Below are positions 3,522-18,997 of a stretch of 32,000 bases of DNA, in pieces. Under the pieces are notes generated by a model, which worked only from the letters and a program-made list of their open reading frames with translations, searched no databases and was not told where the DNA came from. Both the position numbers and the translations under genes were made by a program. The DNA is taken from NCBI RefSeq assembly GCF_009617975.1, contig NZ_CP040089.1, forward strand, positions 941,464 to 973,463, in the 5' to 3' direction. Origin of the DNA: Candidatus Nanohalobium constans (GTDB lineage: Archaea > Nanohalarchaeota > Nanosalinia > Nanosalinales > Nanosalinaceae). How positions within the stretch are numbered: position 1 is the first letter of the stretch; each line of letters starts with the position of its first letter.

Positions 3522-3561
3522 ACATGTTTTTTATTGGCTTGCACACGCATGGAAAGGGATG

Positions 3562-3569
3562 TTTATAAA
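3562..3569 (+). promoter_or_regulatory. Putative TATA box (TTTATAAA) for secF-secD
   Basis: Palindromic TTTATAAA lies about 28 nt upstream of GTG 3594. The same spacing recurs upstream of most first-in-operon genes in this window. Confidence 0.4.
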
Positions 3570-3593
3570 CATTCTAAGACAGGAAGTTATGCT

Positions 3594-4511
3594 GTGAGCC
3601 TAGAACAGAGACTGGAAAAACGTTACTCCGAAATATACAACAACCATCAAAAATATTTCCTAGTCCCTCTAGCACTGCTTATGCTGGCAGTAGCAGTACT
3701 GGGCTTCAGCTACACTCAAAACGGAGAATTCTTTCAGAAAGGAACAGACTTCACCGGAGGAACCGAAGCACAGTTTCAGATAAACGGCTCATTCCCAACA
3801 ACAGAAATCGAGCAAGCGTTCTCAGATGCTGGAAAACCTGGAGCCAACGCAATAACACAGCAGACCAGCGAAGGAAAAAACTTACTAGTCGAAATACCGC
3901 CTCCAGACATCAATCAAAGCGAAGCAGAAGATATACTAACAGACGCAGGCTACCAAGTAGAAGTACTGCAGTTTAACTCGATTTCAGCTTCTGTATCCAA
4001 CCAGTTCTTCCTTCAGGCACAGATAGCATTTGTGCTAGCATTCACAGTCATGAGCCTAGTAATATTCATCGCATTCAAAGATATAACGCCCTCAATGGCC
4101 GTAATATTTGCAGCAGCAGGAGATATAATTATAGCAGGAGCTGGAATGGCTTTGTTAGGCATACCACTTACTCTAGGTTCGTTAGCAGCACTTCTAATGC
4201 TTATAGGTTACTCTGTCGACACAGATATCGTCCTATCAAGCAGAACACTGAAGAGAGAGAAAGACTCACTCCAATCTAGAATGTGGGAATCACTCAAAAC
4301 AGGAGTAACAATGAGCTCAGGAGGTATAGCAGGATTTACACTGCTCTACATAGTATCTTACGTCATAGTTGGTCCTTCAGAACTTTCCAACATTGCAGCA
4401 GTGATGGTAATCGGATTACTAGCCGACATGCCACTGACATGGCTTGGAAACACAGCAATACTGAAATCATACATTGAAGGAGAAGACTTGATCTACAGAG
4501 GTGGAGCATAA
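3594..4511 (+). CDS. secF: Protein-export membrane protein SecF
   Basis: The ORF is open from 3507 and has a C-terminal SecD/F-type TM core (LLMLIGYSVDTDIVLSSR). The start is uncertain. GTG 3594 lies about 28 nt downstream of a TTTATAAA box (3562-3569). ATG 3549 and ATG 3507 are alternatives; 3507 would overlap the aglB start. Confidence 0.85.
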   Translation: MSLEQRLEKRYSEIYNNHQKYFLVPLALLMLAVAVLGFSYTQNGEFFQKGTDFTGGTEAQFQINGSFPTTEIEQAFSDAGKPGANAITQQTSEGKNLLVEIPPPDINQSEAEDILTDAGYQVEVLQFNSISASVSNQFFLQAQIAFVLAFTVMSLVIFIAFKDITPSMAVIFAAAGDIIIAGAGMALLGIPLTLGSLAALLMLIGYSVDTDIVLSSRTLKREKDSLQSRMWESLKTGVTMSSGGIAGFTLLYIVSYVIVGPSELSNIAAVMVIGLLADMPLTWLGNTAILKSYIEGEDLIYRGGA

Positions 4512-4512
4512 A

Positions 4513-6189
4513 ATGGATAAGAAAGATTTATTGAAAGAATGGCGTATCTGGGTTCTTGTACTAGCATTAATAGCTTCAACAGCACTTCTAATCCCGTGGA
4601 ACAGCTCTACTCTGTTCTTCGATACAAGTGGAGACGAGGTTGGGTTCCAGACCAATCTGGATAACCGTACAAGCATAGACTTCAGCGGAGGAACCCGGAT
4701 GCTTCTAGAACTTCAGTCCAACGCAACTGGAGAAGAATTACAGACTCAGGCAGATGACGTGCGACAGACACTGGAGATAAGGCTCTCTAACCTGAATATT
4801 CCTGATCCGAGTGTCCGTGTAGTAGACATAGGTGGCGGCAACTACCGAATTCAGGTCGAGGCATCCAGCAGCAACCAGACAAGGCTGAGAAATGTAATCC
4901 AGCGAGAAGGAAGCTTCGAAGCACGCATGCCAGTGCCAGTACAGAACGAGAAAAACTTCACCTTAGGCAGCAACACATACAGCTTCCAGGTCCAGAACCA
5001 GTCAGTAGAAGTAACAGGACTTGACAACAGCTACTCAAAACTAGTCGGTCCTAACGAAAGATTCCAAATAGAGGATAACGGAATAGACAACTACAACACC
5101 TCATTTATCTACCAAGTATACAACGAATCAACCGAAACAGCAGATATAGAAGTTGTAGCTTACTCAGGAGACGACATACAATCAGTAGTAGACAGTGATT
5201 CCCGATTAGAGGGAGGTGCAGGAAACTACCAGTTCAGTTTCCCCGTAATAATTTCTACAGCATCAGCCAACAATGTGCTTCATGTAGCTGAGAATTACGG
5301 TAGCTCCGTAGGACAGGAATCAGACCTTACACTAGAGAACGGAGAGTTCGCTCGTTTAGGACTTTATGTCGACGGAGAAAGACAAACTGCATTGAGGATG
5401 GGATCAGAATTCGCCAGACAGGTAGTCACAAAGCCACGGATTCAAGGTGGAGCAGAATCCAGAAGCCAAGCACAGGCAGAGATGGAAGAGTTACAAGTCA
5501 TACTTGAATCAGGTAGCCTGGCAACACCTGTAGAAGTAGTAAGCTCCAGCACCTTGAGCGCAGCAAGAGGAAGCCAGTTCATGACCGCTGCAATACTATC
5601 GATAATCGGTTCATTAGTGGCAGTTGGGTTCGCAGTATTCGCACGCTACAAAGACCCAAGAGTAGTAATTCCGATCGTATTCACAGGTGCATCAGAAGTC
5701 TACATCCTGCTCGGGGCATACTTCACAACACTAGGCACATTAAGCCTTTCAGCAGTGGCAGGAATAATAGCAGCAGTTGGAACAGGAGTAGACGACCAGA
5801 TAATCATTACAGATGAATCAGGAAGAGAAGAGCTTCAAGGATGGCAGCAGAAGATGAAGAACGCGTTCTTCGTAATCTTCACTTCCGCAGCATCCACAAT
5901 TGGTGCAATGCTTCCAATCCTGTCACCAGGAAGCATTTCCTACCTGATCGGGGCAGCAGGAGTCGGATTGATGGGTTACACGCTGTACACCAAGGGCAGG
6001 AACAAGCACTACATCGCGATCGGAGCATTCGCCATAATGGTCGGCGTATTCACATCAACACTAGGACCTTCCGGCGCAGCACTAAGCACAATCCACGAAT
6101 TCGCCCGAACAACAATCCTAGGAATCCTAGTCGGAATAACAATCACCAGGCCAGCATTCGCGAAGACTATCGAATTCATCAAGGAATAA
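4513..6189 (+). CDS. secD: Protein-export membrane protein SecD
   Basis: The ORF is open from 4501, and ATG 4513 is preceded by GGTGGAG. It has an N-terminal TM, a large ectodomain, and a C-terminal SecD/F core (GIIAAVGTGVDDQIIITDE). It directly follows secF (stop at 4511). Confidence 0.9.
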   Translation: MDKKDLLKEWRIWVLVLALIASTALLIPWNSSTLFFDTSGDEVGFQTNLDNRTSIDFSGGTRMLLELQSNATGEELQTQADDVRQTLEIRLSNLNIPDPSVRVVDIGGGNYRIQVEASSSNQTRLRNVIQREGSFEARMPVPVQNEKNFTLGSNTYSFQVQNQSVEVTGLDNSYSKLVGPNERFQIEDNGIDNYNTSFIYQVYNESTETADIEVVAYSGDDIQSVVDSDSRLEGGAGNYQFSFPVIISTASANNVLHVAENYGSSVGQESDLTLENGEFARLGLYVDGERQTALRMGSEFARQVVTKPRIQGGAESRSQAQAEMEELQVILESGSLATPVEVVSSSTLSAARGSQFMTAAILSIIGSLVAVGFAVFARYKDPRVVIPIVFTGASEVYILLGAYFTTLGTLSLSAVAGIIAAVGTGVDDQIIITDESGREELQGWQQKMKNAFFVIFTSAASTIGAMLPILSPGSISYLIGAAGVGLMGYTLYTKGRNKHYIAIGAFAIMVGVFTSTLGPSGAALSTIHEFARTTILGILVGITITRPAFAKTIEFIKE

Positions 6190-6214
6190 AACCACATTTT
6201 CCCCATATTTTTCT

Positions 6215-6967
6215 ATGAAAGTGCTGATAACCGGAGGCAGCAACGGCATAGGCAAAGCCACAGCCCAGAAACTGCAGCAGGAAGACCATGAAGCAATAAT
6301 TTTCGACAAGGAAAGACCGGATTACAGAGTTGATTTCTATCAGGGTGATGTCAGAGACGACGAAAGAGTCAAGGAAGTCGCCGAAAAAGCCGATTTCGAT
6401 GTACTGGTTAACTGCGCCGGTTTCTATGAATTAGGTAGCGTCGAAGACATGGAGAAAGAAACAGCAGAGAAAATATTCGACACAAATGTCCACGGATACC
6501 TCAACTTCATCAGACACTCAATGCCAACGCTAAGAGAAAAGAACGGGCGAATAGTAAACATCACCTCCGTAGCTGGAAGAGTTTCGATTCCCTTCTTCGG
6601 CACTTACTGCGGATCTAAGCACGCTGTCGAATCCATCAGCGACTCACTTAGAAGAGAACAAGACGAAGTAGAAGTCGCAATCGTAGAACCTGGAGTAATT
6701 GAGACAGGTTTCAACGAGAGAGCTAGAGAAGCTTTGGAAAAGTATCTGCCAGACTCATTTTATTCTGAAGAGTATGAAGAAATACTATTAGAAGATGGCC
6801 TAGATGGCGTCGATGCGGAGAAAGCGGCTGAAAAAGTTTTTAAAGCAGTTACAGATAAGAGGGCGAAGAGAAGATATCAGGTTCCATTCAGAGCAAAGTT
6901 TGCGATCCTAACAGGACTCATGCCTGCTGTTGTTCAGGATTGGATAATAGAGAAAGTAATGAGATAA
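6215..6967 (+). CDS. Short-chain dehydrogenase/reductase (classical SDR), substrate unknown
   Basis: Rossmann motif TGGSNGIGKA at the N-terminus, YCGSK (YxxxK) active-site motif, about 250 aa. An AATAAAA box lies about 27 nt upstream. Confidence 0.85.
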   Translation: MKVLITGGSNGIGKATAQKLQQEDHEAIIFDKERPDYRVDFYQGDVRDDERVKEVAEKADFDVLVNCAGFYELGSVEDMEKETAEKIFDTNVHGYLNFIRHSMPTLREKNGRIVNITSVAGRVSIPFFGTYCGSKHAVESISDSLRREQDEVEVAIVEPGVIETGFNERAREALEKYLPDSFYSEEYEEILLEDGLDGVDAEKAAEKVFKAVTDKRAKRRYQVPFRAKFAILTGLMPAVVQDWIIEKVMR

Positions 6968-6975
6968 GGGAAAAA

Positions 6976-7284
6976 TTATTGTACTTCTATGACTGCTTCG
7001 GCTACATCGTCCGCATTCTTCAGTGCTTCTCTTGCTTCATCTTCGCTGCAGTCTGTTTTTTCCTGTACTAGTTCAATGTCTTCCTGTGAAGGACCTTGTT
7101 CTTCTTTAGTGTAGTCCCCCTGCAGTTGGAACATTTCCTGACCTTGCATGTCGATTTTACTGACTTGTGGGGATTTGAATACAAATTTTTGGTCTCCAAC
7201 ATGGATTTCGACCTTGTCTGCGTCAATTTCGTCCATGTCCATTCCCATCTGCTTCATCATCTGCTGCATGTTTCCGCCGAACAT
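6976..7284 (-). CDS. nac: Nascent polypeptide-associated complex protein (archaeal NAC, with C-terminal UBA-like domain)
   Basis: MFGGNMQQMMKQMGMDMDEIDADKVEIH... is a typical archaeal NAC N-terminus, and the C-terminal SEDEAREALKNADDVAEAVIE is UBA-like. The track ORF (to 7323) begins at a TTG. ATG 7284 lies about 26 nt from a TTTAAA box. Confidence 0.9.
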   Translation of the reverse strand: MFGGNMQQMMKQMGMDMDEIDADKVEIHVGDQKFVFKSPQVSKIDMQGQEMFQLQGDYTKEEQGPSQEDIELVQEKTDCSEDEAREALKNADDVAEAVIEVQ

Positions 7285-7306
7285 AACCTCTAATGCCACG
7301 CCATTC

Positions 7307-7312
7307 TTTAAA
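7307..7312. promoter_or_regulatory. Shared symmetric TATA element (TTTAAA) of the divergent nac / tctA-like pair
   Basis: The hexamer centre (7309.5) is 25.5 nt from ATG 7284 (minus strand) and 25.5 nt from ATG 7335 (plus strand). Confidence 0.45.
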
Positions 7313-7334
7313 TGAATAAGCAAAAACCGCGTAC

Positions 7335-8498
7335 ATGCTGGAAATCCTGGCCTACAGCCTGACAGGAGTTCTCCTCGGAGTATTCACAGGGCTGATTCCC
7401 GGAATACATCCAAACACAGTGATTTTCAGCTCTATTCCGTTCTACTTAACCTCTGAAATAGAGTTTATACTCTACGCCGCTCTAATTTCAGGTCTTTCGA
7501 TCAGCCACACCTTCCACGACTTCATACCTGCATTCTATCTCCAGGCACCCGAAGGAGGAACAGCACTGTCGATGAGCGTCGGCTCAGAAATGGCTTCAAA
7601 CGGCAGAGGATTCGAAGCATTCAATTCTACGCTTATAGGAGGAATTACTTCGCTCTTCGTCTTTATCCTGATGCTGCCCGTGCTTTACTTCTTTCTGAAA
7701 AATGTTTATGCTGCTGTGGAACCTTTTATGGCTCCTTTTCTTGCGTTCTTCCTTTTCTTCCTTATTTTTCGCTCAGGACGTAAAGAGGCATTTATAGTTG
7801 CTGGATTAGCCGGAACCCTAGGCCTGCTTACCTTGAACAGCAGTATCGCCGGCAGCTTCATATTGATGCCGATTTTCTCTGGTTTATTCGCTGTTCCTGC
7901 TGTCCTGTCTTCAATCGGCTCTGGTGCAGAGATTCCTGGGCAGGAGGAAAGTTTTGAGTTCGAAGGAGTTAGAGGAGGTGCCGTTGGTTTTCTGGCTGGT
8001 ACTATGGCAGGCGTTTTTCCAGGTTTAGGTGCAGCTGGTTCTACTAGTTTTCTTATGCCTCTGCTTGAGGACAAGAAGGATTTCTTGGCTGGCATGGGTG
8101 GTGTCAATACTTCTGATATTGCGATGTCGCTGGTTTCTCTCCTGGTGATTGGTAAGGCACGTTCCGGGAGTTCTGTTGCTTTAAGCAGTTTGACTCAGAC
8201 TGTGGAATGGGAGATTTTCCTGCTTATCGGTGTTTCTATTTTCTGTGCTGGTATTTCTGCTTTGACTGCTTTGCGCTCTCACAATTTGTTTTTGCAAGTC
8301 TTTGAGTTGGTGAGTTTTCGTTTTGTAGGATTTCTGGTGCTTGCTGTTTTGCTCGGCGTTAGTTTTGTGTTTTCAGGTGTGTTTGGTGTATTGGTTTTGT
8401 TGGTTGCTTCTTTGGTTGGTGGTTATAGTTTTTTGGTTGATTGTCGTAGTGTTTGTATGGCTGTTTTGTTGGTGCCTGCGATTTTCTTTTTCCTGTAG
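7335..8498 (+). CDS. TctA/DUF112-family polytopic membrane protein (putative transporter subunit)
   Basis: 387 aa and highly hydrophobic, with repeated GxxPGxG-like motifs (GLIPGIHPNT, GVFPGLGAAGS) as in TctA/DUF112 proteins. The family call is from memory of these motifs only. Confidence 0.6.
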   Translation: MLEILAYSLTGVLLGVFTGLIPGIHPNTVIFSSIPFYLTSEIEFILYAALISGLSISHTFHDFIPAFYLQAPEGGTALSMSVGSEMASNGRGFEAFNSTLIGGITSLFVFILMLPVLYFFLKNVYAAVEPFMAPFLAFFLFFLIFRSGRKEAFIVAGLAGTLGLLTLNSSIAGSFILMPIFSGLFAVPAVLSSIGSGAEIPGQEESFEFEGVRGGAVGFLAGTMAGVFPGLGAAGSTSFLMPLLEDKKDFLAGMGGVNTSDIAMSLVSLLVIGKARSGSSVALSSLTQTVEWEIFLLIGVSIFCAGISALTALRSHNLFLQVFELVSFRFVGFLVLAVLLGVSFVFSGVFGVLVLLVASLVGGYSFLVDCRSVCMAVLLVPAIFFFL

Positions 8499-8540
8499 GA
8501 GTGCAAGTATTTTTATCTGTCGTGTTTGTAATTTTGTGTT

Positions 8541-9542
8541 ATGAATTCTCAGCGGGGTTTTGTTCTGGTTTTGACCGCGGTTTTTTTGCTGATGGCAGGG
8601 CTGATGTTGAAGCCTTTTGTAGGGTATTTGTTGGGTAGTTTGGTTCTTGCTTTTGTTTTGCATCCCGCTCAGAAGTATTTGCGGAGGTTTATTGATGAGA
8701 GGATTTCAGCTTTTTTCTTGACTATTTTGAGTGTGCTGGTTTTCTTGCTGCCTTTTGCTATTATTGTGAGTACTGTTGCGGGAGATGCTTCCGGAGTAAT
8801 TAATGATGTTACTCAGAATGAGGTTGTTGATATTGATCAGTTGGAAGCGTTGATGGCAGAGTATACGGATGAAGATATAGATATTAGAACTCAGTTGAGA
8901 GATGCCGTCAACAGTTTTGTTTCCACAGCGCTTGGAGGATTTTCCCAAATTCTCGGCATTCTTACTGCAGTAAGTATAGGTGTGTCGATAATGTTGTTCG
9001 TGATTTTCTACCTGTTGAAAGATGGTGAGGAGTTTGCAGATTATTTGAAAGACTTGATGCCTCTACCTGAGGATATTGCAGATAGTCTTTACGCTAAGAC
9101 CTACAGTACTACCTGGGCTGTTATTAAGGGTCATGTGTTGGTTGCTTTGGCTCAGGGAGCTATTGCCGGTATCGGTTTGTGGGTTGCTGGAGTTCCAAAC
9201 TTTGTGTTCTGGACATTTGTGATGATTATGCTTTCGTTTATCCCTTTGATTGGTTCGTTCTTGGTTTGGGGTCCGGCAGGAATTTATCTTGTTGCTCTTG
9301 GAGAAGTTCATGCAGGAATATTTTTGCTTATTTACGGCGTTGTAATTGTTAATCTTACTGATAACTTTCTTAGACCATTTGTTGTAGATGAAAGTGCCGA
9401 TCTTCATCCCGCTGTGATATTAATCGGCGTTATTGGCGGTGTGTATGTTTTCGGTGCTTCAGGCTTGTTTATCGGCCCGGTTGTTTTCGGTACTTTGAAG
9501 GCAGTTCTTGAGGTTTTTAACAAGCATTATCAAGAACTTTGA
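8541..9542 (+). CDS. AI-2E family transporter (PerM/UPF0118-like membrane protein)
   Basis: 333 aa with about 8 TM segments. The C-terminal FGASGLFIGPVVFGTLKAVLEVF resembles the conserved PerM-family end. A TATTTTTAT box lies about 29 nt upstream. Confidence 0.7.
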   Translation: MNSQRGFVLVLTAVFLLMAGLMLKPFVGYLLGSLVLAFVLHPAQKYLRRFIDERISAFFLTILSVLVFLLPFAIIVSTVAGDASGVINDVTQNEVVDIDQLEALMAEYTDEDIDIRTQLRDAVNSFVSTALGGFSQILGILTAVSIGVSIMLFVIFYLLKDGEEFADYLKDLMPLPEDIADSLYAKTYSTTWAVIKGHVLVALAQGAIAGIGLWVAGVPNFVFWTFVMIMLSFIPLIGSFLVWGPAGIYLVALGEVHAGIFLLIYGVVIVNLTDNFLRPFVVDESADLHPAVILIGVIGGVYVFGASGLFIGPVVFGTLKAVLEVFNKHYQEL

Positions 9543-9579
9543 ACCTGTTTTATAATATATACGTGAGACAGTTTGGATT

Positions 9580-10365
9580 ATGACTAGTCATCGTGAATCA
9601 GTTGTTTTAGCTGTTATAGCCGTTATTTTGGTTTCCATTCCTGCGGCATCTCAGAATGTTGAAATCAGCGGAGAGGAAAATAAGCAGGGTGTGATCGATT
9701 CGAAGTTTTCTGATCGTTTTGAAGTTGATTTTGAGCCAGGTAAGGTTGTTAATGATTTGATGGATAGTGATGCGAGACTTGAGGTCAATCAAAGTTTTAG
9801 TAGAGATGTGAAGAGGCTTCAGACTTCTAAAGGTTTTGTTAAGATAGTTAGGACAAATGATTCTATTGAGAAAACTGTTCAGACTCCTTACGGTCGTTTT
9901 GAGTTTGGAGTGAAAGATGGCGATAATTACAGCGAGTTTTCTGGGAACAGCGGTTCTAGAGATGAGGCTGAAGAGGTTAGGGAGAACTTGATGGATGAGA
10001 TGAGTCAAAGGTCTTCGGAGTTAAGTGAGAAGCATAGTGTCGTGGTTCAGGAAATGCTTCCGGATGTCAGTGCTTCGGTTGAGGATAATTCAGAGACAGA
10101 GCATTTGAATTTGACGAATAACGAGGAGGAGGCAGTTGATATTTCTGGTTGGAAAGCAGTTTCTATCAGTGGAGATAGTATGGAATACATGAACTTAACC
10201 GGCAAGCTGGAGCCTGGTGAGACTAAGACCTTCTTTGCAGGTGACGAAGGCAGGATGGAAAATTTCGGAGACAATACTGTTTTTAAAGACGTGAATATTT
10301 ACAGTAATGCCTTAGTAAAGGTTTATAACGCTGGAGAGAAAGAAATAGTAAGTTTAGAGTATTAA
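9580..10365 (+). CDS. Secreted/anchored acidic protein with a C-terminal lamin-tail-domain-like module
   Basis: N-terminal hydrophobic signal/anchor (VVLAVIAVILVSIPAASQ). The C-terminal EHLNLTNNEEEAVDISGWKAVSISGDSMEYMNLTGKLEPGETKTFFAG resembles the LTD pattern (xVELxN...vDLSGWxL...L.PG). It has several N-x-S/T sequons. Confidence 0.55.
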   Translation: MTSHRESVVLAVIAVILVSIPAASQNVEISGEENKQGVIDSKFSDRFEVDFEPGKVVNDLMDSDARLEVNQSFSRDVKRLQTSKGFVKIVRTNDSIEKTVQTPYGRFEFGVKDGDNYSEFSGNSGSRDEAEEVRENLMDEMSQRSSELSEKHSVVVQEMLPDVSASVEDNSETEHLNLTNNEEEAVDISGWKAVSISGDSMEYMNLTGKLEPGETKTFFAGDEGRMENFGDNTVFKDVNIYSNALVKVYNAGEKEIVSLEY

Positions 10366-10685
10366 AGTTTCTCTACTTCCCCATTTACTTTGTATTCTTC
10401 TCCCGTAACCAGTTTCTTCAGCTTCATCTCTTCTCCTTCAGCTACAACCACTATTCTCTTCAAGAGAGGGAGCGATACTTCAGGAATTTCTGGTTTTGCA
10501 GTTATGAGAATTGCTGAGATTATGTATAGATAGAGTAGTGCTGAAAGCGTCACCGGGTTATAACCCATGAAGTTAACCGTTATATAAGCGGTAGATGCTG
10601 TGAGAACTCCGTATGTCGTTCCCTCAATAATTTGCTGCTTCATATAGACATAAAATGGGCTTAAACAAAAAAAGTGTTTTGCCAT
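10362..10685 (-). CDS. Small hypothetical membrane protein
   Basis: The ORF is open to 10709 (GTG). ATG 10685 or ATG 10643 is the more likely start. It has a hydrophobic core (LSALLYLYIISAILITA) and I recognise no family. Its stop overlaps the stop of the convergent gene (TTAA at 10362-10365). Confidence 0.4.
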   Translation of the reverse strand: MAKHFFCLSPFYVYMKQQIIEGTTYGVLTASTAYITVNFMGYNPVTLSALLYLYIISAILITAKPEIPEVSLPLLKRIVVVAEGEEMKLKKLVTGEEYKVNGEVEKL

Positions 10686-10767
10686 ATATTTTATCTCCAT
10701 AAATTTCACTCTTTATTCCGTCACAGTTTTACGGAGAGTTAGGAGGTATGGAGACCTCCTTATCGAA

Positions 10768-11709
10768 CTATTTTTGCTTGTAGAACTCTACTGTTTTCCT
10801 TAGTCCTTCTTCAAAGCTGTGTTCTGGACTCCATCCAAGGACTTCTTCAGTTCTTGAGATGTCGGCGTTGTGTTGCATAACATAGTTGTCACGCGGGTTT
10901 TCAATCCTCTCCGGCTCAATATCAGTTCCAAGAACTTTGTTGAGTTTTTCTACTACTTGGTTGAAGGTTTGTGGATCTCCTTTACCGACATTGAAGACTT
11001 CGCCGTCCGCTTCTTCGATTCTCTGTGCGGCGGCGATGTTGGCCTCTGCCACATCTTCAACATAGATGAGGTCTCTCTCCTGGTCGCCCTCTCCCCATAT
11101 GACAGGTCTTTCTCCATCCTGCATCTTCCAGAGGAACTGGGTGACCACATTGGCATACTTTCCCTTCGCCTTCTCATGAGGACCGAAAACGGAGAAGAAC
11201 CTGAGTCCGGTAAATTGGACATCAGTCTGAACACTGTAGGTCTTGGCATAAAGTTCTCGGGACATTTTAGAAGCTGTGTAGAGATTCATCGGATACTCTC
11301 CCGAGTCAACTTCATGAGGTGGTTCGATGCTGCCATACATGGAAGATGTAGATGCATAGACTACTTTTTCCACTTCCTCTTCTTTAGCTGCTTCTGCAAC
11401 ATTGACGAAGCCTTCTATGTTAACTCTAGCTCCTTCAGCTGCGTCTTCCTTATGCATTGGAGATGAGCTTCTGGCTGCGAGATGGAAAACAGTGTCTACT
11501 CCGTTGACGGCTTCCTGTATTTTTTCTTCGTCTAGTACAGAGCCTTCGATTAACTCTATTTTGTCTTCTATTTTTTCCAGGTTTTCAGGAGTTCCGAGGT
11601 ACATGCTGTCTAGTACTGTGACTTCTACATCTTTTTCTACCAGTTTTTCTACTATGTTGGAGCCTATGAATCCTGCTCCTCCTGTGACTAAGGCCTTTTC
11701 CATCTGCAT
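10768..11709 (-). CDS. NAD-dependent nucleotide-sugar epimerase/dehydratase (extended SDR; UDP-hexose/hexuronate 4-epimerase-like)
   Basis: VTGGAGFIGSNIV Rossmann motif, YTASK (YxxxK) motif, 313 aa. An A-rich box lies about 28 nt upstream of ATG 11709. Confidence 0.88.
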   Translation of the reverse strand: MQMEKALVTGGAGFIGSNIVEKLVEKDVEVTVLDSMYLGTPENLEKIEDKIELIEGSVLDEEKIQEAVNGVDTVFHLAARSSSPMHKEDAAEGARVNIEGFVNVAEAAKEEEVEKVVYASTSSMYGSIEPPHEVDSGEYPMNLYTASKMSRELYAKTYSVQTDVQFTGLRFFSVFGPHEKAKGKYANVVTQFLWKMQDGERPVIWGEGDQERDLIYVEDVAEANIAAAQRIEEADGEVFNVGKGDPQTFNQVVEKLNKVLGTDIEPERIENPRDNYVMQHNADISRTEEVLGWSPEHSFEEGLRKTVEFYKQK

Positions 11710-11796
11710 AATTGATTTTGTTTAGCAGTGATTTTTTTAGCTGTTGAACCGGTTTTTAGAAAGGATTTTTATGGAGTGTTTGATAGAGTCTGATGT

Positions 11797-12204
11797 GTGG
11801 GAAGAGAAAGAGATTATCTCCAGAGTTTGTTAGCAGGTGAGTCCCGTGCTTATGGTTTCACTATTGCTTTTTGGGGTTCCGGGGCTATGTTGATCGGTCA
11901 GTATGGTATGCCTGATTTTATCCAGGCTGCTGCCTACGGGGCTGGAGCAGTGACAGGTTTCGGTCTTCTGGCTTTGATCGCTTTCAAGAATACTTTTTCC
12001 GCTATAGAAGATACTAAGAGCACTATGGTTGTCTTATCTATGATGCACTACTTGGCTGCGTTAATCCCTCTTATGATTTCGAAAGTGATCGTAGAGAATG
12101 TTTCTGTCCCTGCTTACGGGTTTTTCATGGCAGGAATGTCTGTCTCAGTTGTCTACAACGCCCTTTCTGTTTTAGAAGAAGATATAGCTGAGCTATTGAG
12201 TTAG
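11797..12204 (+). CDS. Hypothetical 4-TM membrane protein
   Basis: 135-aa ORF with a GTG start and a TTTTTAT box about 27 nt upstream. It is hydrophobic and I recognise no family. Confidence 0.5.
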   Translation: MGRERDYLQSLLAGESRAYGFTIAFWGSGAMLIGQYGMPDFIQAAAYGAGAVTGFGLLALIAFKNTFSAIEDTKSTMVVLSMMHYLAALIPLMISKVIVENVSVPAYGFFMAGMSVSVVYNALSVLEEDIAELLS

Positions 12205-12302
12205 TTAGGAAAGATCTATCCATTTACCCCTCCCTCCGATGTAGACCGATAATTTGGTTGTGACAGGATTTTACTCTACTGGCTATTAAGTTGCTGTTTT
12301 CT

Positions 12303-12977
12303 CTACCTTGTGTCATCCGGAACTATATCCAGTTCTAGGTGGTACTTCTTCCCGTTTCTCTCTATATAGGCGTTACGATGTGGAGGATAGGTCAAAGCCC
12401 TTAACTCATCTATGAAATCTTCCTTCGATGTTTCTTCATTAAGCTTTATCCTTCTCTCATCTTCCAAGTCTTTCTTGTAGTGTGTGGTGCCTCTTCCAGG
12501 GCTTTGTTGTGTTTTCTGTATATTTCCTTGTTTGATATCAGCCCAGTTTTCCTTGAACTGCTGGACTTGCTCCCTCATCAATCTTTCATGCAAACTTTTC
12601 CCTGTGTCGTCAGGATATACCGGCACCTCTCTTCGGTCTATTATCGGACCGTGATCTATTTCTTCTGTCATTTGGTGTATTGATACGCCGGCAGGAGTAT
12701 CCTCGATTATAGGCCAGATATACGGATGTGCCCCTCTGTTATACGGCAGAAAGGATGGATGGAGATTGATTATTCCTTTTTCAGGGACTTCGATTATCTC
12801 TTTAGGTACTTTGTGTTCGAAGCCTGCTGAGATAACTATTTCTGGCTCCAGTTTTTCTATCAGCGATAGTTGGTCTTTCTCTGTAAGTAGTGCGAGGACA
12901 TCAGTGTCTTCTCTCTGGTTCAGCCAGTTGTAGATTTCTTCGCCCGCCTGATTTTGTCCCAGGAAAACTGCCTCCAT
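12303..12977 (-). CDS. Formyltransferase-family protein (Fmt/ArnA N-terminal-domain-like; probable sugar N-formyltransferase)
   Basis: INLHPSFLPYNRGAHP matches the N-10-formyl-THF transferase core (HxSLLPxxRG). At 224 aa it lacks the tRNA-binding C-terminal domain of Fmt. It sits between two nucleotide-sugar SDR genes. Confidence 0.75.
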   Translation of the reverse strand: MEAVFLGQNQAGEEIYNWLNQREDTDVLALLTEKDQLSLIEKLEPEIVISAGFEHKVPKEIIEVPEKGIINLHPSFLPYNRGAHPYIWPIIEDTPAGVSIHQMTEEIDHGPIIDRREVPVYPDDTGKSLHERLMREQVQQFKENWADIKQGNIQKTQQSPGRGTTHYKKDLEDERRIKLNEETSKEDFIDELRALTYPPHRNAYIERNGKKYHLELDIVPDDTR

Positions 12978-14010: not shown

Positions 14011-14370
14011 CTAATCTTCAAGTTCTCTAGTCTCAGAGTATTCTCTGTAATCTTTGTCGCTGGAAACTATCTTTTCTTCTCCAGATGCTACGAGATGTAG
14101 TGCATCGAAAGGAGTGAAGTCTTCCTCCTCTACATAGCTTGCTGCGGCTTCTACCTCTTTAATCTCTCCTTTTACATCAATCAACTCTATTGCTTCAGCT
14201 ACTACCCTCAACACATTCATATTTTCCCTGTATGCGATCAACATAAGTTCAATCAGGGTGTAGCGGGAAGTCCAAAGATCATCATTTTTCTTGTAAATTT
14301 CTCTGGCATTTTCCTGCAGCCAGTCATCATCTTTCAGTAGTGCCAGTACAAAATCTGTCTCAGCATACAT
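14011..14370 (-). CDS. PIN-domain toxin (VapC-like)
   Basis: 119 aa with acidic PIN residues in ETDFVLAL, FDALHL and SSDKDY. It lies 1 nt downstream of the AbrB-type antitoxin gene. Confidence 0.8.
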   Translation of the reverse strand: MYAETDFVLALLKDDDWLQENAREIYKKNDDLWTSRYTLIELMLIAYRENMNVLRVVAEAIELIDVKGEIKEVEAAASYVEEEDFTPFDALHLVASGEEKIVSSDKDYREYSETRELED

Positions 14371-14371
14371 T

Positions 14372-14596
14372 CTATCGGCCTGCCTCTTCCATAGCAGTCT
14401 CTAAAGCACCTTTCTTAAGCTCTTCTACAGACTTATCAGTGCCTTCAAACTCTTCTCTTAGTGCCTCAAGAGGATCATCAGAGACAGGGACCAGCATTAT
14501 CTTATCCCCTCTATCTATAATATGGAACTTCTCACCGAACTTCTCCCTCATCTCCTTGGGAATGTATACTCTACCATTATCTGCAGTAGTAGTCAT
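14372..14596 (-). CDS. AbrB/SpoVT-type antitoxin (VapB-like)
   Basis: MTTTADNGRVYIPKEMREKFG... is a swapped-hairpin AbrB-like N-terminus. ATG 14596 is preferred over the track start 14635 because a TTTAAA box at 14619-14624 lies about 25 nt upstream. Confidence 0.75.
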   Translation of the reverse strand: MTTTADNGRVYIPKEMREKFGEKFHIIDRGDKIMLVPVSDDPLEALREEFEGTDKSVEELKKGALETAMEEAGR

Positions 14597-14628
14597 AAAA
14601 CAAGAATATTTGTCAAAATTTAAAAATC

Positions 14629-14670
14629 TTACCAATAAGGGGGGGAAACGCCTATTCTTTTAATTGGTAA
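14629..14670. promoter_or_regulatory. Inverted repeat TTACCAAT-N26-ATTGGTAA in the control region shared by two divergent TA operons
   Basis: Perfect 8-bp arms at 14629-14636 and 14663-14670. TTTAAA (14619-14624) and TTTTAAT (14657-14663) boxes serve the two start codons. A further palindrome, AGTCATTATGACT (14680-14692), spans ATG 14687. Confidence 0.4.
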
Positions 14671-14686
14671 TGAGTAATTAGTCATT

Positions 14687-14896
14687 ATGACTACTGTTAC
14701 TATCAGCGAAGATACCCATAGAAAGTTGAAGAAGTTGAAGGAGAAAGAAAAAATCAGCTCTTTTGACGAACTTCTGGATAATATTGCAGAGGAGAAACTG
14801 GACATACCTTCATCCGAAGAGATGTTCGGCTCCATGGAAATTGAAGACAAAGAAGAGATTAGAGATCACGACGACAGAGCCGATAGATATGAGTGA
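14687..14896 (+). CDS. Archaeal VapB-type antitoxin (MTTVTISEDTHRKLKKLK family)
   Basis: 69 aa. The N-terminal TISEDTHRKLKKLKEKEKISSFDELL pattern is typical of small archaeal PIN-associated antitoxins, and the tail is acidic. Its stop overlaps the downstream PIN start. Confidence 0.7.
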   Translation: MTTVTISEDTHRKLKKLKEKEKISSFDELLDNIAEEKLDIPSSEEMFGSMEIEDKEEIRDHDDRADRYE

Positions 14897-15284
14897 ATAC
14901 TTGCTTGACACATGGGCGTGGATAGAGTTCTACATCGGAAGCGAGAAAGGGAAAGAAATTTACCAGAAAATAGAGGAAGCGAAGTGTTACACCTCAATAG
15001 TATCCTTAGCGGAAATGTCTGACAATTACCAGTCAGGAAACCTAAAATCAGACAATAAATGGAGCGAAATTAGAGGCTTTGTAGAGTCTAAAACAGAAGT
15101 AGTGACTTTAACGCCCGAAATATGCGGAAATGCAGGAAAAATAAAACAGCAAGAAAGAGAAAAATTCTCAGACTTCGGACTAATGGATGCAATAATACTG
15201 TCAACCGCCAGAAAAAACGACCTAGAATTAATTACAGGAGACAAACACCTAAAAGATAAAGAAAGAGCAAAAAAGTTAGAATAA
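14889..15284 (+). CDS. PIN-domain toxin (VapC-like)
   Basis: Starting at MSEYLLDTWAWIEF, it has PIN acidic residues in LLDT, SLAE, MDAIIL and TGDKHL. The track ORF start (14763) is an upstream extension that overlaps the antitoxin. Confidence 0.8.
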   Translation: MSEYLLDTWAWIEFYIGSEKGKEIYQKIEEAKCYTSIVSLAEMSDNYQSGNLKSDNKWSEIRGFVESKTEVVTLTPEICGNAGKIKQQEREKFSDFGLMDAIILSTARKNDLELITGDKHLKDKERAKKLE

Positions 15285-15298
15285 AGAGCTGGAATTCA

Positions 15299-16147
15299 TT
15301 ATTGCTTTCTTCTATCCAAGACAGGATTTACATTATCGAAAAATCTGTTTGAACTTGATTTTGCTACCCATACATTATTTTGCTGTATGTTACATTCTAC
15401 ATTGAGATTTTGAAGTATTTGCTGCACCATTTTCTTCTCTTGTTCATCATAGGAGCAGATTCTGGGCGACCCGCAAGGATGAAGATTTCCATCTGAATCG
15501 TATTGTCCTTCGATATATTTCCAGGCCTTCCCTTCTTCAAAAAGCCAATCCACTTTATTTTCCAAATTTTGTAGCCATTCAGCAAGTACTTGTGATGATG
15601 CCCAAACAGCGTCTTTGCCTTCTTTCTGTCCTGTATTAGGATTTAGACCTAAGGCTTTCAGGTTTTCTACAAATTTTTCAGCAAATTCTGAATCTTTGAC
15701 TTCAAGCCCTATTGTGCCGTTATTATCATGAAATCCATCTCCATCAATAACTCCTAGAATATAAGATAAAGATTCAGTTTGCCCGAATTTGACATCAATT
15801 TCATTTTCTTCGGCAAGTTTTCTGCATTTCTCAGCGACCTCTTCACTATTCCTGTATTCTTCTTGGTTTCTTGCTAAACCTAGATCCATTGCCTTGAGCT
15901 TTATGGCATTCCAACTTCTCTCTGGAAGTAATTCTGAAATCTCGGATTTATCTCCAGGATAATTTTCCCTCAATATCCGCTTTTCTTCTTCTGACCACGG
16001 GTCAGCGATATCCGACTTAATATCATATTCGCTCATCCATTTAGAGACAGAAGACTGTGTAACTCCTAATTTTTCACCAATCTGTCTTTGACTCAAATCC
16101 TCATCGTGGTATAACCTGTAAAGCTCTTCAGCGCTTACCTTAGACAT
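15299..16147 (-). CDS. Free-standing LAGLIDADG homing-endonuclease-like protein with N-terminal HTH and Myb/SANT-like modules
   Basis: Two LAGLIDADG-type motifs (YILGVIDGDGF and YIEGQYDSDGN) lie about 90 aa apart. The N-terminus has an HTH (LSQRQIGEKLGVTQSSVSKWM) followed by WSEEEKRILRENYPG...SWNAIKLKAMDLGL (Myb/SANT-like). The gene is AT-rich with T-ending codons, unlike its neighbours. There is no intein or intron host. Confidence 0.75.
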   Translation of the reverse strand: MSKVSAEELYRLYHDEDLSQRQIGEKLGVTQSSVSKWMSEYDIKSDIADPWSEEEKRILRENYPGDKSEISELLPERSWNAIKLKAMDLGLARNQEEYRNSEEVAEKCRKLAEENEIDVKFGQTESLSYILGVIDGDGFHDNNGTIGLEVKDSEFAEKFVENLKALGLNPNTGQKEGKDAVWASSQVLAEWLQNLENKVDWLFEEGKAWKYIEGQYDSDGNLHPCGSPRICSYDEQEKKMVQQILQNLNVECNIQQNNVWVAKSSSNRFFDNVNPVLDRRKQ

Positions 16148-17156: not shown

Positions 17157-17174
17157 AGATAGTATCAACTCTGT

Positions 17175-17366
17175 TTATTCTAGATATCCTAATTGTCTCA
17201 GTTTATCCGCGATCTCCTTTGCCTGATCATCGTCAAGCTCCTCTTGCTGGTTCTCTGAATCAGCCAGTTCTCTAAGCTTGTCTTGTACGAATCTTGATAG
17301 ATTGATGTGATTCTCATCGACAAACTCTGCCAAATCCTCAGGCAAAGAAATAGTCTTCCTCGGCAT
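17175..17366 (-). CDS. Ribbon-helix-helix (CopG-like) small DNA-binding protein, first gene of an operon with the CysD-like gene
   Basis: MPRKTISLPEDLAEFVDENHINLSRFVQDKLRE is an RHH pattern (beta strand followed by two helices); 63 aa. The track ORF (to 17618) is an extension that overlaps the flippase gene. A perfect 17-bp palindrome abuts the start codon. Confidence 0.7.
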   Translation of the reverse strand: MPRKTISLPEDLAEFVDENHINLSRFVQDKLRELADSENQQEELDDDQAKEIADKLRQLGYLE

Positions 17367-17367
17367 A

Positions 17368-17384
17368 ATGCATAACTTATGCAT
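17368..17384. promoter_or_regulatory. Perfect 17-bp palindrome ATGCATAA-C-TTATGCAT: putative RHH operator
   Basis: It lies 1 nt upstream of the RHH start codon (17366), between that codon and a TTATTAA box (17390-17396, about 27 nt upstream). Confidence 0.5.
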
Positions 17385-17407
17385 ATTGGTTAATAAGTGG
17401 TTGGTGA

Positions 17408-17420
17408 AGTTTAAACAGTT
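17408..17420 (+). promoter_or_regulatory. AGTTTAAACAGTT box: putative flippase promoter (TATA core 17410-17415)
   Basis: The TTTAAA centre is 28.5 nt upstream of ATG 17441. The 13-mer is 12/13 identical to 27761-27773. Confidence 0.4.
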
Positions 17421-17440
17421 CTTATCTTCAAACTTCAGGT

Positions 17441-18997
17441 ATGGGAGATGCCGATCAAAAAGCATTGAACGCACTGGCAAAGGGTGCTGGCGTGACTGCG
17501 ATAGGGATGGGTATTTCCAAGGTATTGACTTATCTTTACCGGGTTTCAATTGCCCGTTTTGTTGGTCCTGAGGCGTACGGTCAGTTGTCAACTGCTTTGA
17601 TGGTTGTCGGTATTGCAAGCACTGTCGCCTACCTGGCTCTGGGCTCAGGTTTGAAGAAGTTTATACCAGAATTCAGAAGTAGAGATGATTTTGCAAGTAT
17701 TAAGGGCATAGTTATCAGTGCACTCCAGTTAACCGTTCCTGTATCTATAATCATTTTCCTGGCAGTGTTCTTCGGAGCAGAGTTCATCGCTGTAACTATT
17801 TTTGAAAACCCGAAACTAGTTCCTCTCATAAAGATTCTATCGTTCACTATACCTGCAGGAACCCTTTCCAGACTCTTCTTCGATACAACACTGGGATTCA
17901 ACAAGATAATTTACAAGACCGGGACAGTCAGGATATTTCAAAACATTGTTCAGCTTGGGACAACCCTGATACTTCTTTTAATGGGTTTTAAAGTAGTGAG
18001 TGCTGCTTATGGCTGGTTACTGGGAACCGTAGTTGCTGCCATTCTCGGTTTCTACTTTATGGAGAAAAAAGTAGGTCCAATACTTTTCTCCAAGACTAAA
18101 CCCTCCTATCACCGAAAAAAGCTGCTCAGATTTTCCACCCCACTGCTACTCTCAGGAATAATAGGAACACTGCTCGGCTGGGCAGACACAGGACTGCTAC
18201 AATACTTCATGGAAGACCTTGAAGTAGGACTGTACAACGCAGCCCTGCCTACCGCCATACTGATACTTCTGCCTCACAAAGCAATTGGAAGCCTGGCAAT
18301 CACTTCATTCTCCGAGCTAAAGGAAAGAGACAAAGAAAGCGTAGAGAGCTCCATACAAAGAGCCACATACTGGGTTTTCTCACTTGTATTCCCTACCTTC
18401 CTCATAATGCTCCTATTCTCAGACAAAATACTGCAAATACTCTGGGGATCAGAATACACACAAGCCTCAATAGCACTCTCAATTCTAGCAACAGGATACC
18501 TAATAGACGCCCTAGTAGGCAGAGTAGGAAGCCTCCTCCAATCAGAAGGACACACAAAATACATACTATACAACAACACAGCAGCACTAACACTCAACAT
18601 CATACTCAACATCATACTAATACCTCCATACGGAATAGCTGGAGCAGCAATCGCCACAGCAACCTCCACCATACTAACCAACGTATTAATGTACATCGAA
18701 GTCCGGAAAAAAGAAGGAATAAACAGCATACCCCACAAAAAAATCTCAAAAATAGTACTAACCGGACTAATACCACTATCAATCATAATAACACTAGACA
18801 CAATACTCTTCACAAACACACCATACTGGTTCCTGATCCCAGCAGGAACAACCTACATTACAACCTACATCCTCCTATTCCTCAAAACAATAGGACTTGG
18901 AGAAGAAGAAAAAGAAGTATTTCTCAGGATAGGAGAGATCACAGGAACAAAAGATAAGGTTAAAAAAATACTGGCAACCATAGAGAGAAGAATTTAA
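17441..18997 (+). CDS. Oligosaccharide flippase, MOP/Wzx family (AglR-like)
   Basis: 518 aa with about 14 TM segments, the polysaccharide-biosynthesis-protein architecture and the glycosylation context. A TTTAAA box lies about 28 nt upstream. Confidence 0.8.
   Translation: MGDADQKALNALAKGAGVTAIGMGISKVLTYLYRVSIARFVGPEAYGQLSTALMVVGIASTVAYLALGSGLKKFIPEFRSRDDFASIKGIVISALQLTVPVSIIIFLAVFFGAEFIAVTIFENPKLVPLIKILSFTIPAGTLSRLFFDTTLGFNKIIYKTGTVRIFQNIVQLGTTLILLLMGFKVVSAAYGWLLGTVVAAILGFYFMEKKVGPILFSKTKPSYHRKKLLRFSTPLLLSGIIGTLLGWADTGLLQYFMEDLEVGLYNAALPTAILILLPHKAIGSLAITSFSELKERDKESVESSIQRATYWVFSLVFPTFLIMLLFSDKILQILWGSEYTQASIALSILATGYLIDALVGRVGSLLQSEGHTKYILYNNTAALTLNIILNIILIPPYGIAGAAIATATSTILTNVLMYIEVRKKEGINSIPHKKISKIVLTGLIPLSIIITLDTILFTNTPYWFLIPAGTTYITTYILLFLKTIGLGEEEKEVFLRIGEITGTKDKVKKILATIERRI

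Follow-up and report, generated by a model that had tools for sequence, protein, structure and literature searches.

Strand compositional asymmetry normally shows up as a faint signal of replication or transcription at the scale of the whole chromosome. The question taken up here is why synonymous codon usage should change within a single gene, the tctA-like gene (7335-8498) of the tiny, salt-loving archaeon Candidatus Nanohalobium constans LC1Nh. The window, by which we mean the whole stretch of DNA that was analysed, covers 32 kb of a genome of 973 kb. GT3 denotes the share of third codon positions that are G or T, keto denotes G+T, and L-numbers (L001, L008, L017 and so on) are labels for the related lineages or contigs compared with LC1Nh.

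Codon usage in the tctA region of LC1Nh

An earlier note on this DNA had counted by hand 22 G/T-ending codons among the first 58 of TctA and 50 among the last 58; these counts are exact (Fisher p=1.1e-7), and GT3 for the whole gene is 0.61. The downstream + strand genes continue to favour G/T-ending codons as it had described (GT3 0.74 in the AI-2E gene, 0.71 in the LTD gene and 0.64 in a 135-aa membrane-protein gene), and the core genes that it named are indeed A/C-ending (aglB 0.42, secF 0.33, secD 0.31, nac 0.39, the CysD-like gene 0.25 and the epimerase 0.35), with all window genes other than TctA, AI-2E, LTD and the 135-aa gene lying between 0.25 and 0.58. Profile matches to Pfam (TctA to PF01970, E=6e-34; AI-2E to PF01594, E=7e-55; LTD slightly below the Pfam cut-off) indicate that the three genes of the TctA-LTD block are real genes.

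The change is not the one-step switch at 7650-7700 that had been proposed. GT3 runs low, high, low and high again along TctA, and the best single maximum-likelihood change point is at 7983 (support interval 7860-8037). Heterogeneity of GT3 within genes is seen at p<0.05 in 17 of the 24 window genes, so intragenic switches are common here; the strongest in the window is in the flippase gene at 18134, where GT3 falls from 0.52 to 0.15, in the direction opposite to TctA, and the segment that follows includes a run of 46 A/C-ending codons. Within the window, + strand genes remain G/T-ending over kilobases only in the TctA-LTD block, where the codon switch in TctA forms the left boundary of a keto tract of ~2.5 kb on the + strand (~7650-10150; Table 1).

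Table 1. Compositional features of the LC1Nh window (coordinates within the window).
Feature	Coordinates	Strand	Composition
TctA 5' third, usual A/C-ending codons	7335..7649	+	GT3 0.27-0.40
First G/T-ending patch in TctA	7650..7780	+	GT3 ~0.65-0.70
Tract interruption in TctA	7785..7900	+	GT3 0.40-0.47
Keto tract core: TctA 3' half, 8499-8540 spacer, first ~100 codons of AI-2E	7900..8850	+	GT3 0.8-0.93
Dip in AI-2E	8856..8990	+	GT3 0.50-0.57
Weaker tail: AI-2E 3' part, 9543-9579 spacer, first ~190 codons of LTD gene	8990..10153	+	GT3 0.62-0.83
Separate small G/T-rich patch: 11710-11796 spacer, 135-aa membrane-protein gene	11700..12204	+	
Mirror-image segment, flippase gene 3' half	18134..18900	+ strand A/C-rich	GT3 0.03-0.10; total G+T 0.30

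In the tract core total G+T reaches 0.78-0.86, codon positions 1 and 2 are also G/T-rich, and the TctA/AI-2E spacer has a G+T of 0.76. GT3 drops within AI-2E at 8844 (0.89 to 0.67), and the right edge of the tract at 10153 is marked by a fall from 0.77 to 0.53 (p=0.004). For the TctA 5' third, the closest protein sequence is that of L098, a lineage without the tract (82-88% identity). In the separate patch the spacer has a G+T of 0.71 and T occupies 0.57 of the four-fold sites of the 135-aa gene, whose orthologue sits within a much longer tract in L017.

Tracts in related lineages

A G/T-rich TctA is present at the same syntenic locus in at least six other independently assembled sources (L008-L013, L014/L017/L018, L016, L019 and L099), and the tracts of LC1Nh, the L008 and L017 groups, L016, L019 and L099 range from 1.7 to 12.4 kb; L016 has 119 G/T-ending codons in a row. 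The tract is missing in L098, L094, L095, L097 and L001, although gene order is the same. We conclude that Ca. Nanohalobium constans and its closest relatives inherited the tract as a property of this locus. The tract-bearing alleles are 12-18% apart and still have G or T at ~0.9 of third positions, and of the differences between L014 and L017, 36% are G-T interchanges. Among the six L008-group strains there is one SNP in 1.4 kb of tract, and no ongoing hypermutation is visible.

In L017, whose TctA is 74% identical to that of LC1Nh, the tract extends for 12.4 kb (~450-12850) between flanks of normal composition. Its + genes (secF, secD, TctA, AI-2E and LTD) have G or T on the + strand at 0.76-0.92 of third positions, and so do its - genes when the same strand is read (aglB 0.88, NAC 0.87, a 114-aa gene 0.82 and fmt 0.79); the only two genes outside this range are adh (0.55) and a 138-aa gene (0.61). 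At the four-fold sites of aglB the + strand has T 0.70, G 0.23, A 0.04 and C 0.03, and amino-acid composition in the tract moves in opposite ways for + and - genes. The bias thus tracks the DNA strand irrespective of gene direction; the LC1Nh tract holds + genes only, so this strand specificity is established in the relatives and not in LC1Nh itself. The skew of LC1Nh and L008 peaks at the 3' end of TctA and the 5' end of AI-2E and decays to both sides, and that of L017 forms a plateau broken by holes, without a monotonic gradient; one hole of normal composition coincides with a divergent block carried by the L008 strains at secD 3'/adh.

Nature of the compositional shift

The two codon patterns had been described as differing only by third-position transitions, a description that does not survive closer counting: four-fold sites shift mainly from A (0.45 to 0.15) to T (0.22 to 0.57), and codon positions 1 and 2 and intergenic DNA are shifted likewise (intergenic G+T 0.71-0.76 in tracts versus 0.50 outside). 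Two-fold sites show an excess of the changes expected of single-strand deamination skew, with T rising from 0.36 to 0.80-0.89 (C to T) and G from 0.33 to 0.75-0.84 (A to G). Polarisation of positions 1 and 2 against the consensus of tract-free lineages gives 8-11 C>T and 0-2 T>C changes in TctA, and 13:0 for C>T in L017 secD; L017 aglB, which lies on the - strand, has the complementary pattern, with 27:11 for G>A and 17:7 for T>C. At nonsynonymous sites of TctA, A>G only weakly exceeds G>A. The + strand therefore loses C, and less clearly A. No motif enrichment was found.

Recombination at the locus

A recombination breakpoint, as had been suggested for the TctA switch, is a plausible origin of the sharp, patchy edges, though in LC1Nh it is not proven. 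L014 and L017 are near-identical to ~8560, beyond which their divergence inside TctA reaches 30% in some 100-bp stretches (~11% overall), so that recombination within the gene, at about codon 65-95, can be read directly from this alignment; the divergent secD 3'/adh block in the L008 strains has been noted above. LC1Nh has its affinity with tract-free L098 outside the tract and with tract-bearing L008 inside it, the amino-acid max-chi2 test placing the switched segment at 7572-9691 (p=0.003), and beyond 10153 RY-coded sites favour grouping with L098 by 14:0. The signal in LC1Nh largely fades under transversion-only coding, and common mutation pressure could imitate it. The tract does co-exist with frequent homologous recombination at this locus, which probably shapes its patchy edges.

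Origin of the tract

Of the explanations first offered for the switch, a local strand-asymmetric regime is supported in substance, since the bias lies on the DNA strand and affects intergenic DNA and protein composition. A feature that is inherited, tied to one strand, extends to spacers and to codon positions 1 and 2, and is absent from syntenic lineages points to a directional mutation pressure that acts on DNA and has done so for a long time. Neither codon selection nor foreign DNA nor misassembly explains the tract. We consider it reasonably probable that it is a local keto-skew island produced by long-lived, locus-specific, strand-asymmetric mutation pressure, with single-strand exposure as the presumed source and edges shaped by recombination. 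The + strand may be repeatedly single-stranded, with deamination of its cytosines and adenines (C to T, A to G); equivalently, it could be resynthesised repeatedly by an error-prone polymerase making G-T mispairs. The strand might be exposed by R-loops or transcription of the TctA/AI-2E/LTD unit, by strand displacement or break-induced synthesis at the locus, or by transfer of single-stranded DNA. The abrupt, patchy edges in LC1Nh would reflect homologous recombination of alleles with the tract and alleles lacking it. The window yielded no deaminase, reverse transcriptase, nickase or replication origin.

Import of the tract by recombination from an unsampled lineage with extreme genome-wide or replichore-wide skew, with no local regime at all, would fit the frequent recombination here, the switch of LC1Nh between L098 and L008, the normal-composition patches that break up the tracts, and the mild locus-wide strand skews in the nanohaloarchaea L002 and L101. 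We nonetheless regard it as improbable, because no contig was seen with such a skew away from this locus, the flanks of both L017 and L018 are normal, and at least six diverged alleles hold the bias in the same place. Between tract-bearing lineages the tract genes are no more similar than the flanking genes, and third-position identity is only modestly above compositional expectation, so a recent donor common to them is excluded. A horizontally acquired island was likewise rejected, the closest homologues being nanohaloarchaeal and the NAC-TctA-AI-2E-LTD synteny conserved; no tRNA genes, flanking repeats or mobility genes were found. A misjoined assembly or sequencing artefact at ~7.68 kb has a negligible chance of being correct, since sister lineages carry same-locus tracts on independently assembled metagenome contigs, the reading frame stays intact through the junction and the Pfam match of TctA spans it; two DNA preparations of LC1Nh also gave identical assemblies (PMC7443923).

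Selection on codons or mRNA, favouring non-optimal G/T-ending codons in TctA, AI-2E and LTD for slow membrane-protein translation or low expression, for example, draws on the observations that the optimal codons appear to be those ending in A or C, that the first 30-100 codons of many genes are G/T-richer in the manner of a 5' ramp, and that TctA alone is moderately G/T-ending in the distant clades L025 (0.70, with neighbouring + genes at 0.33-0.43), L023, L041 and L003. It seems unlikely, because a bias carried by the DNA strand, by spacers and by amino acids in strand-dependent directions is not confined to synonymous sites or bound to the coding strand, the - genes in the L017 tract carry the complementary bias, secF and secD are converted there too, and other membrane-protein genes of LC1Nh (secD, secF, aglB and the flippase) are A/C-ending. 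The complementary coding-strand bias of the L017 - genes also speaks against a transcription-associated skew with polarity set by gene direction. A G+T-rich strand that is independent of gene orientation is the classical signature of replication skew, and a leading/lagging asymmetry limited to a short domain of fixed fork direction would fit this and the mild skews of L002 and L101. We regard it as unlikely: the profile is zero, plus, zero over 2.5-12 kb with no change of sign, tracts span kilobases between unskewed flanks and do not extend over a replichore, neither the 32 kb of LC1Nh examined nor the edges of the L017 tract contain an Orc1/Cdc6 gene or origin-like repeats, and the bias in L017 aglB is far above the mild skews of other nanohaloarchaea (~0.6). 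A diversity-generating retroelement or other templated hypermutation was rejected, as there are no repeat pairs, the window ORFs that were scanned encode no RT domain, and the changes are not adenine-specific.

A more specific form of the local mutation pressure is put forward tentatively, and we think it rather less likely than not to be right: this envelope-gene locus would be a fixed site at which one strand is chronically single-stranded or resynthesised with errors, a mitochondrial-type regime in a DPANN clade, with the flippase segment a second site affecting the other strand. Such a site might hold a persistent R-loop, serve as a fixed starting point for strand-displacement or break-induced synthesis, or be where single-strand DNA transfer originates, and it would have turned up to 12 kb nearly 100% G/T at silent sites and reshaped the encoded proteins.

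Comparison with other asymmetric systems

In the literature we found no earlier account of a local G/T tract like this in a cellular chromosome. The closest likeness is to the heavy and light strands of vertebrate mitochondrial DNA, in which one strand is enriched in G+T, silent sites have lost C and A to a similarly extreme degree, and the skew is independent of gene orientation and spills into amino-acid composition; deamination of C and A on the strand left single-stranded is the proposed cause (for the vertebrate heavy strand). Here, however, the skew is an island of 1.7-12.4 kb, flanked by normal DNA within a cellular chromosome of 0.97 Mb and varying in extent among sister lineages, and a gradient tied to a known origin was not found. 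Where replication skews the strands, as between leading- and lagging-strand genes of Borrelia burgdorferi, the DNA strand on which a gene lies sets its codon usage, with G/T-ending codons on one strand, but that skew is genome-wide, changes sign at origin and terminus and is much weaker; the tract is local, near saturation and shows no sign change. The CPR bacterium Ch65 is also an ultra-small prokaryote of host-dependent type with a drastic strand disparity, C making up 29.8% and G 15.0% of one strand whatever the orientation of the genes, although it affects the whole chromosome and G/C only, with no A/T disparity, and is attributed to unidirectional replication (PMC7143001).

Transcribed and R-loop-forming regions (mammalian introns, CpG-island promoters and immunoglobulin switch regions) share the G+T excess of the non-template strand and are bounded near promoters or terminators, much as the edges of the L017 tract coincide with the 5' ends of genes, and positive GC skew could favour R-loops. 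They differ in that the L017 polarity ignores annotated gene direction and its magnitude is far larger, and other window genes, including secD/secF and nac, are oppositely A/C-ending. Kataegis, APOBEC/ADAR hypermutation and fungal RIP also produce clustered deamination-type changes on one strand over kilobases, but as single events that hit coding positions too, whereas positions 1 and 2 are largely kept here and recent mutation clusters between strains are not seen; this preservation, together with a bias retained across such divergent alleles, indicates slow build-up under purifying selection.

A kilobase-scale island with sharp edges, a fixed locus, lineage-specific extent and silent sites up to 100% G/T implies that some strand-specific DNA transaction is strongly localised here, in an archaeon about whose replication, repair and DNA exchange almost nothing is known. 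The cause, once found, could reveal a replication origin, a hotspot of R-loops, a site of nicking or a start of DNA transfer in DPANN archaea; LC1Nh is kept in co-culture, so the cause is testable. The mutation pressure overrides an apparently strong codon preference and changes the composition of proteins encoded by essential genes (secDF and aglB in L017). The tracts also imitate recombination and horizontal-transfer signals in phylogenies, and they deplete stop codons on both strands, which gives rise to long spurious ORFs.

A G+T-rich tract spanning the TctA, AI-2E and LTD genes

By gene content the window is devoted to the cell envelope and to glycosylation; it encodes aglB, secF, secD, a short-chain dehydrogenase, nac, a TctA-family permease, an AI-2E-family transporter and an LTD-domain protein, together with epimerases, a formyltransferase, a flippase, glycosyltransferases, a sulfatase and several toxin-antitoxin-type genes. 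The fraction of third codon positions that are G or T (GT3) is 0.25-0.58 in all window genes except TctA, AI-2E (0.74), LTD (0.71) and a separate 135-aa gene; these last three stay G/T-ending, as the earlier note had observed. Its counts of G/T-ending codons in TctA (22 of the first 58 and 50 of the last 58) are exact (p=1.1e-7). The switch that it saw within TctA is real, but it is not the proposed single step at 7650-7700: the profile is patchy, and the best single change point is at 7983 (support 7860-8037). Plus-strand G+T rises from ~0.46 (7350-7650) to 0.78 (8251-8550) and returns to ~0.54 by 10200, with maxima of +0.44 for GC skew and +0.66 for T-over-A skew, and the right edge of the tract lies within LTD at 10153. 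At the tract core codon positions 1 and 2 are 0.83-0.87 G/T. Between normal and tract sequence two-fold sites change from C to T (0.36 to 0.80) and from A to G (0.33 to 0.75). The suggestion that only transitions are involved is inaccurate, as four-fold sites shift mainly from A (0.45 to 0.15) to T (0.22 to 0.57).

Coordinates of features in the window
Feature	Coordinates	Strand	Composition or remark
nac	6976-7323
TctA	7335-8498	+	GT3 0.61 as whole gene
Tract profile	7335-7640	+	GT3 low
Tract profile	7650-7780	+	GT3 high
Tract profile	7785-7900	+	GT3 low
Tract profile	7900-8850	+	GT3 0.8-0.93
Tract profile	8856-8990	+	GT3 dip
Tract profile	after 8990 to ~10100	+	GT3 0.62-0.82
Spacer	8499-8540		G+T 0.76
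Antisense ORF	7706-8107	-	133 aa
Antisense ORF	9607-10008	-	133 aa
135-aa gene	11797-12204	+	GT3 0.64
GT3 heterogeneity within genes (examples)	3507-3597, 4501-4819, 14763-14988, 21916-23103
PIN, HEPN/nucleotidyltransferase and HTH/LAGLIDADG-like genes	14011-15284, 15299-16147, 29368-30055
PAPS-reductase-like gene	16188-17168	-	GT3 0.25
147-aa ORF	17175-17618	-	no family match
Flippase	17441-18997	+	GT3 0.52 to 0.15 at 18134
Flippase segment	18134-18900	+	total G+T 0.30
A/C-ending codon run	18487-18622	+	46 codons

The TctA, AI-2E and LTD genes are real genes and not artefacts of stop-codon depletion; TctA matches its Pfam family over residues 5-369 (E=6e-34), and AI-2E matches its own with E=7e-55. 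Because all three stop codons contain T and A, stops are few on an A-poor strand or its T-poor complement. The long antisense ORFs within tracts, two in the window and one of 303 aa in the relative L017 (9443-10354, minus strand), have low-complexity, A/C-codon translations and are probably spurious.

Heterogeneity of GT3 within genes is common (p<0.05 in 17 of the 24 window genes). Usually the initial 30-100 codons are G/T-richer and the remainder A/C-ending. The arrangement resembles a 5' ramp of non-optimal codons, an indication that translation favours the A/C-ending codons; this preference leaves protein composition unaltered. TctA runs contrary to the usual pattern, with GT3 going up from 5' to 3'. 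Spacers beyond the tract are unskewed (G+T 0.50). The most extreme A/C-ending gene of the window is PAPS-reductase-like; its plus-strand third positions are 0.70-0.85 G/T, and the composition changes abruptly at either end of the gene, its neighbours being at ~0.5.

Distribution of the tract among relatives

The comparison covered 32 kb of the N. constans genome and syntenic loci of nanohaloarchaeal relatives drawn from genome and metagenome collections. In the L008 group, six contigs from different samples, TctA is 76% identical to that of N. constans and has a GT3 of 0.72, and G+T again peaks (0.73-0.83) where TctA ends and AI-2E begins. L099 has GT3 values of 0.91, 0.76 and 0.65 in TctA, AI-2E and LTD, and L016 contains 119 G/T-ending codons in a row, with four successive 40-codon windows at 1.00. 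The decisive case is that of L017, L018 and L014, where the tract extends for 12.4 kb (~450-12850) with normal composition on both flanks, and plus-strand third positions are 0.76-0.92 G/T in most genes. This holds for plus-strand genes (secF 0.80, secD 0.76, TctA 0.90, AI-2E 0.92, LTD 0.78) and, read on the plus strand, for minus-strand genes (aglB 0.88, NAC 0.87, a 114-aa gene 0.82, fmt 0.79); adh (0.55) and a 138-aa gene (0.61) are weaker. Four-fold sites of this aglB, read on the plus strand, are T 0.70, G 0.23, A 0.04 and C 0.03.

The tract is absent from L098, L094, L095, L097 and L001, all of which have the same gene order; TctA of L098, whose gene order is as in N. constans, is 70% identical. 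In distant clades a moderate G/T-ending bias is confined to TctA (in L025, 0.70 versus 0.33-0.43 for adjacent plus-strand genes), a hint that the focus may be intrinsic to this gene. Across L025, L023, L041 and L003 it is the top or near-top G/T-ending gene locally (0.60-0.70 versus 0.33-0.61). Among other nanohaloarchaea we also note a mild locus-wide strand skew regardless of gene orientation in L002 (Nanosalina J07AB43), L032 and L101 (plus-strand third-position G/T ~0.6 in the first two and ~0.42 in L101); it resembles ordinary skew of the replication type.

Recombination at the locus

Alignments of close relatives show that the locus recombines. From aglB to nac, L014 and L017 differ by no more than ~1% (0-10 differences per kb), whereas from about codon 65-95 of TctA onward divergence reaches 30% per 100 bp and is ~11% overall. 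The divergent block (L017 coordinates ~8560-9900) starts near the position of the switch in N. constans. The L008 strains have a divergent block at the secD 3' end and adh (L008 2500-4200), and the L017 tract has a hole of normal composition (6950-7900) coinciding with it.

The N. constans proteins are close to those of tract-free L098 in TctA residues 1-100 (82-88% identity), NAC (93%) and the AI-2E 3' end (82-97%). Identity in the C-terminal part of TctA is 47-62% to L098 versus 70-85% to tract-bearing L008. A maximum chi-squared analysis of amino-acid informative sites delimits an L008-like segment at 7572-9691 (p=0.003). When positions 1 and 2 are coded for transversions only, the L008/L098 contrast inside the tract is weak and in the same direction, and a sharp L098-like run (14:0) lies just past the right edge at 10144-10283. 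The tract edges in N. constans thus probably have a mosaic origin, but this falls short of proof, because shared mutation pressure can produce the same affinities. Synonymous identity to L098 in the 5' part of TctA is only 0.4-0.5, so any exchange between these two would be old.

Nature and possible origin of the bias

Four properties point to mutation pressure at the DNA level and against codon or mRNA selection. The bias tracks the DNA strand independently of gene direction, as seen in the relatives (the N. constans tract holds plus-strand genes only), and it extends to spacers inside tracts (G+T 0.71-0.76). Amino acids change in a strand-dependent manner: residues with G/T-rich codons make up 0.44 of TctA in L001, 0.48 in N. 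constans and 0.56 in L017, and in the minus-strand aglB product of L017 the share of residues encoded by A/C-rich codons increases from 0.21 to 0.29. Finally, changes at codon positions 1 and 2, used because third positions are near saturation between lineages and polarised against the unanimous consensus of tract-free lineages, are directional. In TctA of L008, L017, L016 and L099 there are 8-11 C>T and 0-2 T>C changes, C>T is 13:0 in secD of L017, and aglB of L017 shows the complement of this, with G>A at 27:11 and T>C at 17:7; C>G and A>T are in excess too, to a smaller degree. The bias is purely compositional, and no oligonucleotide motif or k-mer is enriched in tracts. A U-bias of membrane proteins is rejected as the explanation, since other genes for such proteins (secD, secF, aglB and flippase) use A/C-ending codons.

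The bias appears to be maintained and not a decaying relic: tract alleles 12-18% apart are still ~0.9 G/T, and G-T interchanges make up 36% of the L014/L017 differences. A single hypermutation burst is rejected in view of the largely conserved positions 1 and 2 and of the retention of the bias across diverged alleles. Six L008-group strains differ at a single SNP over 1.4 kb of the tract, which also speaks against a burst and is too little for a spectrum of ongoing hypermutation; their other SNPs are mostly in recombinant blocks.

We consider it fairly probable that the tract results from a chronic mutation pressure, specific to this locus and strand-asymmetric, of the kind produced by single-strand deamination, and that recombination has reshaped the tract edges. 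One strand has lost C and A whatever the gene direction, and the loss approaches saturation; on the mitochondrial model the plus strand would be left single-stranded and deaminate; repeated error-prone resynthesis of that strand via G-T mispairs would give an equal pattern. Exposure of the strand by sense transcription fits N. constans and L008, and the L017 tract edges lie at gene 5' ends, but there it would need a long plus-sense transcript over minus-strand genes. Ordinary replication skew is a quite unlikely cause, as the profile runs from zero through plus to zero without a change of sign and no origin features were found in the window or at the L017 tract edges. Defence-system and Pfam scans of the window revealed no deaminase, reverse transcriptase or nickase, the sole match being the LAGLIDADG/HTH protein ~5 kb away. 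Scans for Rfam families, tRNAs, promoters and terminators gave nothing relevant and no tRNA gene, and searches for flanking direct or inverted, attachment-like or template/variable-type repeats gave only low-complexity chance matches.

Mutational strand asymmetry as such is a known kind of phenomenon, occurring in mitochondria and Borrelia. In vertebrate mitochondria the depletion of C and A on one strand, which the tract shares, is attributed to deamination of that strand while single-stranded. The CPR bacterium Ch65 has a G/C strand disparity over its whole chromosome (PMC7143001), whereas the tract is a kilobase-scale island. In a literature search we did not find the feature described for Nanohaloarchaeota, nor the combination of a kilobase-scale island, near-saturated silent sites, a fixed locus with lineage-varying extent and normal flanks in an archaeal chromosome.

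Other features of the window

The flippase gene contains the strongest intragenic switch in the window, and relatives L100 and L101 have a weaker GT3 dip at the same codons. The segment is a mirror image of the TctA switch and may or may not be the same phenomenon. The flippase ORF and the divergent 147-aa ORF overlap by 178 bp, and one or the other probably has a wrongly placed start codon. The glycosylation cluster also contains two PIN-domain genes, a HEPN/nucleotidyltransferase pair and a gene for a protein with HTH and LAGLIDADG-like (homing-endonuclease-like) parts; the LAGLIDADG-like gene is conserved in L008 as well. Lastly, the third positions of nac are unusually well conserved even though the gene lies beside or inside tracts, with 68-76% identity between lineages versus 33-61% for its neighbours.
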